A program made the position numbers and the translations under genes. A DNA stretch of 62,832 bases, filler included, from Collodictyon triciliatum (lineage: Eukaryota): assembly GCA_043381765.1 (NCBI GenBank). It is 5 parts of 5 records of this genome, joined end to end, with 100 filler letters (N's around TTAATTAATTAA, not from the genome) between each part and the next. Parts side by side here need not be neighbours in the genome. Positions count along the whole stretch, not along the records: positions 52,512 to 62,832 come from JBHJMP010002722.1; 4 more parts are not named here. One strand, 5' to 3'. The notes beneath the pieces are model-generated. The model ran no database searches. It saw only the letters and a list, made by a program, of their open reading frames with translations, and was not told where the DNA came from. Of this stretch, positions 52,512-59,319 are shown in pieces (position 1 is the stretch's first letter; every line of letters starts with the position of its first letter).

Positions 52512-55500
52512 GATTTTGAGTCTTTTGTGATATCTTCTTTTTGATAGAATCCTGATAAGCATGAGTTACATGATGAGCTTCTCTCTGAGCTATAGCTTCC
52601 GTTTGGACATGAAATGCATGATGATTTGCTGAATGATCCAGTTTTGTTGTTTGAAGTACCAGCGGGACATGATGCGCATGATGCTTGACCGTCTCTATCA
52701 TTCCAAGTGCCTTGTGGACACTCGATACATGATGAGTTTCCATATGAGCCGGAGTTTGAGTTGAATGTGCCTTTTGGACAAGCGTAGCATGATTTTGAGT
52801 CTTTTATGATTCCTTCTTTTTGATAGAATCCTGATGAACATAAGCTGCACAATGAGCTTCTTTCTGAGCTGTAGCTTCCCTTTGGACATGAAATGCATGA
52901 TGCTTGGTTATATGAGCCAGTTTTATTGTTGAATGCACCAGCGGGACATGATGCGCATGATGCTTGACCATCTTTATCGTTCCAAGTACCTTGTGGACAT
53001 TCAGTACATGATTTGTTTCCATATGAGCCCGAGTATGAGTTGAATGAGCCTTTTAGACAAGCATAGCATGATTTTGAGTCTTTTATTACTCCTTCTTTTT
53101 GATATAATCCTGATAAGCATAAGCTGCATGATGCGCTTCTATCTGAGCTGTAGCTTCCATCTGGGCATGAAATGCATGAATCACCAAATGAGCCAGTTTT
53201 GTTGTTTGAAGTACCAGCGGGACATGATGTGCATGATGCTTGACCATCTCTATCATTCCAAGTACCTTGTGGACATTCAATACATGATACATTTCCATAC
53301 GAGCCGGGGTTTGAGTTGAATGTACCTTTTGGACAATTATAGCATGATTTCGAGTCTTTTGTGATTCCTTCTTTTTGATAGAATCCTGAGGAACACAAGC
53401 TGCATGATGCGCTTCTATCTGAGCTGTAGCTTCCGTTTGAACATGACATGCAAGATGATTCATCGAATGAGCCAGTTTGATTGTTGAATGTACCAGCTGG
53501 ACATGATATACACGATGCTTGACCATCCTTATCATTCCAAGTACCTTGTGGACATTCAATGCATGATTTGTTTCCATATGAGCCGGAGTTTGAGTTGAAT
53601 GTGCCTTTTGGACAAGCGTAGCATGATTTTGAGTCTTTTATCATTCCTTCTTTTTGATAGAATCCTGACGAGCATAAGCTGCATGATGCGCTTCTTTCTG
53701 AGCTGTAGCTTCCATTTGGACATGGAATGCACGATGATTGATTAAATGAGCCAGCTTGATTGTTGAATGTACCAGCTGGACACGATGTGCATGATGCTTG
53801 GCCATCTCTATCATTCCAAGTACCTTGTGGACATTCAATACATGAATTGTTTCCATATGAGCCGGAGTTTGAGTTGAATGTGCCTTTTGGACAAGCGTAG
53901 CATGATTCTGAGTCTTTTTTGATTTCTTCTTTTTGATAGAATCCTGATAAGCATAAGCTGCATGATGCGCTTCTATCTGAGCTGTAGCTTCCGTTTGAAC
54001 ATGACATGCAAGATGATTCATCGAATGAGCCAGTTTTGTTGTTGAATGTACCAGCTGGACATGATGTGCACGATGCTTGACCATCTCTATCATTCCAAGT
54101 ACCTTGTGGACATTCAGTACATGATTTGTTTCCATATGAGCCGGATATTGAATTGAATGTGCCTTTTGGGCAAGCGTAGCATGATTTTGAGTCTTTTATC
54201 ATTCCTTCTTTCTGATAGAATCCTGACGAGCACAAGCTACATGATGCGCTTCCAACTGAGCTGTAGCTTCCATTCGGACACGAAATACATAATGATTGGT
54301 TAAATGAACCAGTTTTGTTGTTGTATGTACCAGCTGGACATGATGTGCATGATGCTTGACCATCCTTATCATTCCAAGTCCCTTGTGGACATTCGATGCA
54401 TGATGAGTTTCCATATGAGCCGGAGTTTGAGTTGAATGTGCCTTTTGGACAGGCATAGCATGATTGTGAATCTTTCATTATATATTCTTCTTGATAGAAT
54501 CCTATTGAGCATATGCTGCATGATGAGCTTCTCTCTGAGCTGTAGCTTCCATTTGAACATGAAATACATGATGATTGGTTATATGAGCCAGTTCTGTTAT
54601 TGAATGTCCCAGCTGGACAAGATGTGCATGACGCTTGACCATCTCTGTCATTCCAAGTACCCTGTGGACATTCGTTGCATGATTTGTTTCCATATGAGCC
54701 GGAGTTTGAGTTGAATGTGCCTTTTGGACAAGCATAGCATGATTTCGAGTCTTTTATGATTTCTTCTTTTTGGTAGTATCCTGATAAGCATGAGCTGCAT
54801 GATGCACTTCCAGCTGAGCTGTAGCTTCCATTTGGACATGATATGCATGATGATTGATTGAATGAGCCAGTTTTGTTGTTGAATGTACCAGCTGGACAAG
54901 ATGTGCATGACGCTTGACCATCTCTATCATTCCAAGTACCTTGTGGACATTCGATACATGATTTGTTTCCATATGAGCCGGAGTTTGAGTTGAATGTGCC
55001 TTTTGGACAAGCACAGCATGATTTCGAGTCTTTTGTGATGTCTTCTTCTTGATATAATCCCGGTGAACATAAAATACATGATGAGCTTCTTTCTGAGCTG
55101 TAACTTCCGTTTGGACATGATATGCACGATAACTCATTGAATGAGCCAGTTTTGTTGTTGAATGTACCAGCTGGACATAATGTGCATGATGCTTGACCAT
55201 CTCTATCATTCCAAGTACCTTGTGGACATTCAACACATGATTTGTTTCTATATGAGCCGGAGTTTGAGTTGAATGTGCCTTTTGGACAGGAATAGCATGA
55301 TTCCGAGTCTTTTGTGATTCCTTCTTCTTGATATAATCCCGGTGAACATAAAATACATGATGAGCTTCTTTCTGAGCTGTAGCTTCCATTTTGACATGAA
55401 ATGCATGAGTATTGATTATATGAGCCAGTTATATTGTTGAATGTACCAGCTGAACATGATGTGCACGATGCTTGACCATCTCTATCATTCCAAGTACCTT

Positions 55501-55750
55501 GTGGACATTCAATGCATGATTTGTATCCATATGAGCCAGAGTTTGAGTTGAATGTGCCTTTTGGACAAGCATAGCACGATTTTGAGTCTTTATTGATGTC
55601 TTCTTTTTGATAGAATCCTGATGAACATGAGCTGCACGATGCGCTTCTCTCGGAGCTGTAGCTTCCATTTGGGCATGACATACATGATGATTCATTATAT
55701 GAGCCAGCCTTATTGTTGAATGTACCAGCTGGACATGATGTGCAGTCGTC
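52512..55750 (-). repeat. 279-bp (93-aa) coding tandem repeat, at least 11 copies
   Basis: The CPKGTFNSNSGSYG unit recurs near 52771, 53050, 53326, 53605, 53884, 54163, 54442, 54721, 55000, 55279 and 55558 (one unit is 276 bp). Confidence 0.95.
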
Positions 55751-58700: not shown

Positions 58701-59319
58701 ATTTTAGACCCATCAGGAGTAACAGCAACACTGGTAACACCACTAGTATGACCAATCAATGTGCGAATCAAAGCTCCATCAGAAAGATTCCAGATTTTGA
58801 TTGTATTATCATAACTTCCAGAAACAATTTTTGAGCCATCAGGAGTAACAGCAACACTGGTAACACCACTAGTATGACCAATCAATGTGCGAATCAAAGC
58901 TCCATCAGAAAGATTCCAGATTTTGATCGTATTATCACCGCTTCCAGAAACAACTTTTGAGCCATCAGGAGTAACACTAACACTCCGAACCCAACTAGTA
59001 TGACCAATCAGTGTACGAATCAAAGCTCCATCAGAAAGATTCCAGATTTTGATTGTTTTATCATCATAACCACCGGAAACAATTTTTGAGCCATCAGGAG
59101 TAACAGCAACACTGTGAACATAACTATTATGGCCCGTTCCAATAGTGTAAATCGATGATACTTGCCCTTCAACAAGACACAGTTGGCAGTGAAGCATCAA
59201 TCCTAAAAATATATCAATTAAAATTCTATGTAATTTGAAGTCAATAAAATTAAAACAATTAAAATGTAAAACTCACCCAATAGCAGCAGAGCTGCAAACG
59301 ACTTTGAGTTCAATCTCAT
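52512..59319 (-). CDS. Secreted/cell-surface protein: signal peptide + 21 WD40 repeats + Cys-rich CxxCPxGT(Y/F) repeat stalk (>2200 aa, C-terminus truncated)
   Basis: ATG at 59319 and one 74-nt GT-AG intron (59276-59203) give MRLNSKSFAALLLLGLMLHCQLCLVEG|Q. WD40 repeats span ~59140-56530. Ephrin-receptor-like/GCC2-GCC3-type Cys repeats run from 56530 to the scaffold end. Confidence 0.92.
58270..59140 (-). repeat. 126-bp (42-aa) high-identity WD40 tandem repeat, 7 copies
   Basis: Near-identical GHTSxVxSVAVTPDGSKIVSGSxDxTIKIWNLSDGALIRTL units. Confidence 0.95.

Follow-up and report, generated by a model that had tools for sequence, protein, structure and literature searches.

Whether canonical WD40 propellers can work outside the cytoplasm is the question raised by a gene of the protist Collodictyon triciliatum (assembly GCA_043381765.1). 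Propellers built from GH-WD repeats are a textbook intracellular scaffold, and to our knowledge the propellers that eukaryotes place outside the cell are of other repeat types. The gene lies on the minus strand of contig JBHJMP010002722.1, which occupies positions 52,512-62,832 of the window (the whole stretch of 62,832 nucleotides that was analysed, filler included) as the last of five joined contigs, and it combines a hydrophobic leader, 21 WD40 blades and a long cysteine-rich stalk. An initial annotation had proposed that the product is a surface receptor with a ligand-binding head on a spacer. Part of that interpretation stands: the architecture is present in one frame, its internal junction is bridged by a second data set, and the solved relatives of the stalk are extracytoplasmic. 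Its argument from WN-x-S motifs as glycosylation sites does not. We consider it reasonably probable that the protein carries a recognition or adhesion head outside the cytoplasm, on a glycosylated spacer and with a possible anchor beyond the end of the contig. Because the C-terminus is missing, the label "surface receptor" is unproven.

Gene model and domain architecture

The coding region is carried by one minus-strand frame of 2270 codons (59272..52460) that is open into the N block at 52511, with 2229 codons free of stops (P0001, 2229 amino acids (aa)). The start ATG, at 59319, is preceded three codons earlier by a TAG in frame (read from the sequence). It opens an exon 1 of 43 nt (59277..59319, minus strand) that codes for the beginning of the leader, with its n-region and the larger part of its h-region (MRLNSKSFAALLLL plus the first base of G15). 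A predicted GT-AG intron of 74 nt in phase 1 (59203..59276, minus strand; GTGAGT...TTTTTAG) separates this exon from exon 2 (52512..59202, minus strand), an uninterrupted coding frame open into the contig end. Splicing restores both the frame and a canonical leader, and yields a stop-free product of at least 2244 aa that begins MRLNSKSFAALLLLGLMLHCQLCLVEG|QVSS. The use of exon 1 is suggested by the sequence, and a contig of a metagenomic data set (X2 record 14) aligns with about 87% identity to positions 59177-59429, which comprise the first exon, the intron and 5' flanking sequence. The gene model and coordinates of the initial annotation were reproduced, with one correction: position 52512 is where the contig stops, within a tandem array. 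It is the assembly that truncates the protein, and the gene continues beyond this break. The truncation coincides with an assembly linker (52412..52511, no strand) composed of N44, TTAATTAATTAA and N44.

The leader has a basic n-region (R2, K6), an 11-residue hydrophobic core (FAALLLLGLML), and a c-region (HCQLCLVEG; leader end at 59165..59202, minus strand) with V at -3 and G at -1 of a predicted cleavage site after G27. No other 19-aa window of the protein is strongly hydrophobic, and the best 9-aa window (2.9) is at residues 10-18. Blade 1 starts at the predicted cleavage site (residue 27), directly after the leader. This n/h/c layout is what would be expected of the N-terminal signal peptide that had been proposed.

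Two Pfam families account for the remainder of the protein: WD40 (PF00400; E 2.8e-189, 20 stretches) and the TNFR-like Cys repeats of Ephrin_rec_like (PF07699; E 3e-207, 31 stretches), with nothing else different in kind. By register, the WD part holds exactly 21 units, of which 19 are 42 aa long, while blade 8 is degenerate (39 aa) and the last unit measures 40 aa; the count of 21 given earlier is thereby confirmed. The W of the last blade is directly followed by SPCQGG and then by the first CxxC unit. From there on, the stalk extends over at least 1340 aa with 146 cysteines and 72 CxxC units of 16-20 aa, in line with the more than 1300 aa of repeats described before. Its proximal part (55577..56533, minus strand) is not repeated: some 17 CxxC(P)xG units, all of them distinct, adjoin the last blade. 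The distal part (52512..55744, minus strand) is built from a 93-aa (279-nt) super-repeat of five CxxC units, present in 11.6 copies according to Tandem Repeats Finder (TRF). This array covers the last ~55 units at 87% nucleotide identity and runs off the contig. The 10 full copies average 77% amino acid identity, and carry conserved N-x-S/T sequons at columns 18, 48 and 63 (in 9, 9 and 8 of 10 copies, respectively).

The only solved structures related in sequence to the stalk are those of the mastigoneme protein Mst1 (4.9e-33) and ELAPOR1 (2.4e-10). Both are extracytoplasmic, which upholds the earlier assignment of the repeats to extracellular modules. Mst1 is reported to form an extracellular polymer on cilia (PMC10846610, PMC11015965). 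With the stalk alone as the query, the similarity to Mst1 (PDB 8tx1) and human ELAPOR1 (9vql) was confined to the Cys-repeat segments.

A stalk with 146 cysteines in 72 CxxC units would not form its disulfides in the cytosol. This speaks against a cytosolic protein, in which exon 1 would be unused, translation would start from an internal Met (MLHCQ...), and the WD40 part would be an ordinary intracellular scaffold. The WD part itself would be compatible with such a location, as it looks entirely cytosolic (few cysteines, no excess of sequons), and no RNA run matched the stretch. In addition, its closest sequence relatives, among the matches listed, are STAND/NLR-type proteins. A WD40 match named from Reticulomyxa filosa (P0024) is 45% identical. 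Against this stand the extracytoplasmic relatives of the stalk, the canonical spliced leader whose ATG follows an in-frame stop, and a metagenomic protein (L001, discussed below) that has an unspliced leader before the same kind of blade. We regard the cytosolic alternative as very unlikely.

Hypervariable positions of the first propeller

The first seven blades (58286..59167, minus strand) form an array that TRF describes as 126 nt x 6.8 copies at 88%. An AlphaFold2 model of these blades, based on a 47-row alignment, is a closed propeller of 28 strands (predicted local distance difference test score (pLDDT) 96.3; predicted template modelling score (pTM) 0.93). Foldseek aligned the model with seven-bladed WD40 structures at TM-scores of up to 0.94 (7big, 5yzv, WDR5), and the nearest solved structures include a "highly repetitive propeller", designed symmetric propellers, a prokaryotic WD40 domain and WDR5. 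Blades 8-14 (57413..58285, minus strand) presumably form a second propeller, with units 42% identical to one another and 50% identity to propeller 1 over its length. Likewise, blades 15-21 (56534..57412, minus strand) presumably form a third, with units 51% identical and 56% identity to propeller 1. Judging by their number, the 21 blades thus probably make up three seven-bladed propellers.

Within propeller 1, blades 2-7 share on average 84% of their residues (range 69-95%; adjacent pairs 79-95%). Their differences fall mainly on unit positions 17, 19, 35 and 37, the four most variable, and only one of the 111930 possible four-position subsets reaches the summed diversity of these four. The frequencies of nonsynonymous and synonymous differences (pN/pS) were 0.63/0.32 at these positions and 0.045/0.20 elsewhere, in a sample of six young repeats of one gene that are related by duplication and whose counts are not independent. 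The ratio of about 0.22 outside the four hypervariable positions points to purifying selection. The AlphaFold2 model assigns positions 13-17 to the loop that precedes strand A and positions 35-37 to the B-C turn. As is usual in WD40 domains, both would lie on the top face of the propeller.

This pattern resembles that of the HET-E/NWD proteins of fungi. In a study on Podospora, codons 7, 9, 25 and 27 of the WD repeats, which form pairs around codons 8 and 26, both conserved, are described as being under diversifying selection (Paoletti et al. 2007, PMC1805685). That paper places them on the top face that serves as the interaction surface, within the d-a loop and b-c turn (PMC1805685). The variable positions of propeller 1 had been noticed before this comparison was made, and the published positions are independent of our data. 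The two patterns coincide after a shift of 10 positions, a register between our unit numbering and the HET-E codons that was set partly by the HET-E repeat and which we assume to be correct. In both systems, the variable residue pairs flank a conserved V and a conserved D in the d-a loop and b-c turn, and the repeats are 42-aa GH-WD units.

According to Dyrka et al. 2014 (PMC4986451), highly internally conserved (HiC) WD repeats, for which a threshold of about 85% identity from repeat to repeat across 100 aa or more is quoted, are uncommon overall and enriched among fungal NLRs. The 84% average of blades 2-7 sits at this threshold, and propeller 1 shows the four-codon, two-pair diversity on the top face that characterizes fungal HiC WD40 repeats. 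By analogy, the concentration of variation among blades 2-7 at the four top-face positions known from fungal NLR sensors lends support to the suggestion that this part of the protein may be a ligand-binding head.

The likeness to NLRs is limited to the way the sensor domain would work. The fungal HET-E/HET-D/NWD proteins are cytosolic and carry N-terminal HET and NACHT domains, whereas the protein described here has a leader, a cysteine-rich stalk and no nucleoside triphosphatase (NTPase) domain. Pfam gave no match to a NACHT or NB-ARC NTPase upstream of the repeats, where blade 1 directly follows the leader, and we rejected an identity as an NLR on these grounds.

The pN/pS ratio also bears on the integrity of the locus. 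Since the gene is located where a contig of a very fragmented assembly breaks off within a tandem array, the copy numbers of both repeat arrays are uncertain, and one could suspect a chimeric assembly of WD40 and Cys repeats, a collapsed repeat array, or a decaying pseudogene. However, 2229 codons are free of stops, purifying selection is apparent outside the hypervariable positions, and the junction of the two parts falls exactly at the end of a blade. Moreover, a contig from another data set (X2 record 10) bridges the WD40/stalk junction (56394-56608) with 13 differences in 215 nt, or 94% identity. The stop-free frame, the purifying selection and the bridged junction make a chimeric assembly unlikely, and we deem an artefact of any of these kinds very improbable.

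Relatives and known systems

A scan with the junction region recovered a second WD40 protein behind a leader. This metagenome contig (L001; protein P0122) contains a complete open reading frame (ORF) of 773 aa, in which a hydrophobic leader (MKTLLLKILLFFGSILCGINILFVLC) precedes seven blades and an (SQ)n linker leads on to FG-GAP_2 repeats and a stop. Its blade consensus, WNLSDG(S/A)LIRTL(T/I)GH, is the same as that of the Collodictyon protein. Its blades are 75% identical to propeller 1, while all other rows of the alignment reach 61% or less, and three of the four positions specified a priori are among its own four most variable. Thus, both proteins share the leader before blade 1, the blade consensus and the location of the variation. 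They differ in that L001 has one propeller, continued by (SQ)n and FG-GAP_2, where the Collodictyon protein has its cysteine-rich stalk. Neither a transmembrane segment nor a hydrophobic tail precedes the stop of L001. Since its leader is unspliced and precedes the same type of blade, L001 provides independent support for export behind a leader that needs no intron. Among 77 remote matches to its FG-GAP part, most are exported proteins of bacteria, and for none is a WD40 family listed. A family in the sense of the initial annotation would rest on two proteins that have only the head in common.

Export of WD40 domains as such is less unusual than had been assumed. At least 25 of the compared WD40 homologs, mostly bacterial-looking, carry a leader directly before the first blade, within about 60 residues of the first GH motif. 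Unlike the Collodictyon protein, these exported bacterial proteins are encoded on prokaryote-type contigs and lack both the cysteine-rich stalk and the WNLSDG consensus. The novelty claimed for a WD40 domain outside the cytoplasm would thus be confined, if it holds at all, to eukaryotes and to this architecture.

The closest unsolved relatives of the stalk are giant proteins that carry TIG, FG-GAP or lectin heads on the same type of stalk, with stalk identities of 31-42% to giant Ephrin_rec_like proteins. To compare them, we used the 44 homologs with 20 or more CxxCxxG units. Giant protist and algal proteins with TIG (P0020, P0090, P0270) or FG-GAP (P0117) heads share the CxxCxxG stalk and the head-on-stalk design, and many have an N-terminal leader, but unlike the protein studied here, none of the 44 contains WD40 blades. 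Twenty of the 44 begin with M and a hydrophobic N-terminus, and in 29 at least four hydrophobic peaks follow the last Cys unit. In a typical tail, one peak after the stalk is followed by a gap of about 230 aa and about six more peaks. Such a conserved-looking tail of one transmembrane segment, 230 aa and six transmembrane segments was seen in Ephrin_rec_like/TIG proteins P0020, P0053, P0090, P0270 and others from metagenomes and transcriptomes. The tails of the stalk homologs matched no Pfam family, even at E 10, and no solved relative. This multi-pass tail may represent a membrane module, as yet undescribed, that belongs to surface receptors of protists. For the Collodictyon gene, the tails illustrate by analogy what could lie beyond the contig end, and nothing more.

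These tails also bear on whether the protein could be a structural coat or filament component, exported as we propose, but with propellers that serve as assembly or polymerization modules and not as ligand sensors. Several points favour this: Mst1, the closest match to the stalk among solved structures, forms a polymer outside the cell, the 93-aa super-repeat with its great regularity resembles a rod, L001 has no anchor at its end, and one stalk homolog has weak matches to Giardia variant-specific surface proteins (VSPs). Yet the 29 homologs with four or more hydrophobic peaks would be membrane proteins and not free polymers, and variation at four top-face residues fits a diversifying binding surface better than an assembly interface. 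A coat or filament protein is therefore unlikely in our view, though it is the alternative that we take most seriously.

An extracytoplasmic head on a spacer, the reading that we prefer, could work as follows. A cleavable N-terminal signal peptide would send the giant modular protein into the endoplasmic reticulum, so that the 21 GH-WD blades and the disulfide-bonded CxxC rod end up outside the cytoplasm. The protein would then be displayed on the cell surface or secreted, with the rod as a glycosylated spacer and the outermost propeller as a binding head. Repeat exchange would keep the blades nearly identical while four top-face residues per blade vary. The logic of the head would be that of the recognition diversity of fungal HET-E/NWD NLRs, there used inside the cell. 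Its most likely job would be recognition of, or adhesion to, prey, microbes, substrate or conspecific cells.

Several observations weigh against this reading. With the C-terminus beyond the contig end, anchoring and signalling would be conjecture. The leader and its -3/-1 positions were judged by inspection, and a search of sequencing runs with the stretch returned no matching RNA run, either for the gene or for exon 1. The WD part, with 5 cysteines in 878 aa, shows no adaptation to an oxidizing, glycosylating environment; its 11 sequons compare with 12.2 expected, and 1401 of 2000 shuffles reach that number. On the structural side, the model covers blades 1-7, and a single-sequence fold of all 21 blades reached a pLDDT of 33. 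Finally, only propeller 1 is highly internally conserved, the pN/pS values stem from the small sample of dependent repeats described above, and L001 need not be eukaryotic.

The sequons deserve separate mention. In 11 of the 21 blades, N-x-S occurs right after the W or T of strand C (10 WNxS and 1 TNIS), which had been taken as an argument for glycosylation. However, WN belongs to the majority consensus of this WD40 subfamily as a whole (IKIWNLxTG in the alignment). Furthermore, a cytoplasmic-looking bacterial protein of the STAND/TPR type (L026) has 11 WD blades of high similarity, 10 of them with WN[VI]S[DN]G (L026:4241-5140 and upstream), so that the sequon-like motif also occurs without a secretory context. 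Together with the lack of sequon enrichment in the WD part, this makes the argument a weak one. All 11 WD-part sequons lie off the variable face, either where strand C ends or within the C-D loop; glycans at these sites would leave binding unblocked, but signify no more than that. The stalk contains 39 sequons against 28.0 expected, a number reached in 17 of 2000 shuffles, with the reservation that its repeat copies are not independent.

A known plant receptor shows a comparable layout. CRINKLY4 (ACR4/CR4) has a leader, a seven-bladed propeller and a TNFR-like cysteine-rich domain (CRD) in its ectodomain, according to a preprint (bioRxiv 10.1101/2020.08.10.245050). CRINKLY4 proteins are receptor kinases with a single-pass transmembrane segment and a cytoplasmic kinase; any counterpart of these in the Collodictyon protein would lie beyond the contig end. 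As described in the preprint, its single propeller is of the BLIP-II/UVR8-like type, with one disulfide per blade and a buried N-terminal strand, and its CRD measures about 90 aa, in contrast to the canonical WD40 repeats, three times seven blades and 1340-aa stalk found here. With a different type of propeller, and 5 cysteines in 878 aa in place of one disulfide per blade, the protein was not considered a relative of CRINKLY4.

No second protein combining WD40 and Ephrin_rec_like repeats was found. The lists searched comprised the best-ranking part of far larger result sets in which long repeat proteins predominate, so that absence from them is weak evidence. Among the best 120 of 1485 matches, one (P0018) passed a loose filter for WD40 and Cys-repeat motifs, but it was discarded, as its Pfam list holds no WD40 family. 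A stricter filter found both repeat types in none of 379 compared proteins besides the query, in a set that pools the matches of several searches and P0122. Similarly, none of 78 metagenome loci encoded both types within one ORF, with junction-specific patterns included in the scan, and a single viral-contig match (L079) covered the WD part only. An Atlas search with the junction region returned generic WD40 clusters only, with scores of 0.86 or less. In the literature, we found no description of a WD40 and Ephrin_rec_like protein, nor, judging by titles and the starts of abstracts, of a secreted WD40 protein of protists. The architecture, which the initial annotation had not recognized from any characterized protein, was thus without a second example among the 379 proteins and 79 loci, but it may well exist unannotated elsewhere.

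Genomic setting and meaning for protist recognition

The window is joined from its five contigs by four N44-TTAATTAATTAA-N44 linkers (10336-10435, 20761-20860, 41990-42089 and 52412-52511), where 0.01 would be expected by chance. As these contigs are unrelated, features should not be read across the joins. Three more N blocks (3770-3955, 31415-31749 and 36638-37058) are ordinary scaffold gaps. Microsatellites and low-complexity tracts are very abundant (52227-52411, 20860-21050, 22200-22400, 30900-31400, 36430-37120 and 44300-44500), and include (A7-8G)n adjoining the linker as well as long poly-purine/pyrimidine and trinucleotide runs. They are probably the cause of the fragmented assembly.

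Three freshwater metagenome DNA runs matched small shares of the stretch (0.06-0.07). In one metagenome (X1), 77 of 246 aligned contigs were at least 99% alike to the stretch, showing that the organism or a close strain is present in it. The 3.5 kb upstream of the gene (59320-62832) have a G+C content of 0.24-0.33 and contain no ORF of more than 83 codons. Short X2 contigs cover all bins of this region, which is thus a non-coding flank common to a relative. Scans of the window with Rfam and for tRNAs gave no matches.

On the other contigs, the C-terminal half of a heterotrimeric G-protein alpha subunit (7627-8139, plus strand; Pfam G-alpha, E 2.3e-42) contains a GT-AG intron of about 104 nt near 7827-7930, indicating that the source organism has G-protein signalling and short introns. 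Protein kinase exons (42889-44112, plus strand; Pfam Pkinase, E 1.5e-22), GSK3-like by motif reading, and a class-I methyltransferase fragment (38409-38873, plus strand; Methyltransf_11, E 8e-11) were found on contigs of higher G+C content (0.40-0.50).

The Collodictyon protein works like the head-on-stalk surface proteins of protists combined with the self-diversifying WD40 sensor of fungal NLRs. A far-reaching interpretation, which we offer as a speculation and regard as improbable, is that a protist exports this sensor module, part of intracellular NLR and STAND proteins in fungi and bacteria, as the ectodomain of a surface receptor whose stalk may continue into the multi-pass membrane module. 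It would provide extracellular, germline-diversifying recognition of prey, microbes or conspecific partners (fusion or allorecognition), with secreted forms of the L001 type as soluble members of the repertoire. As both repeat arrays break assemblies, such genes would usually be truncated or missed in annotation.

A protein with leader, WD40 blades and stalk, along with another with leader, WD40 blades and FG-GAP repeats, suggests that at least one protist lineage exports the fold. The variability at four positions links the protein to the fungal het/NWD genes, the best-understood case of repeat-driven recognition diversity. If true, the protein would provide a testable case in which a sensor module of the innate-immunity style has been put to new use outside the cell, and would offer a handle on how large free-living protists discriminate prey, microbes and kin.

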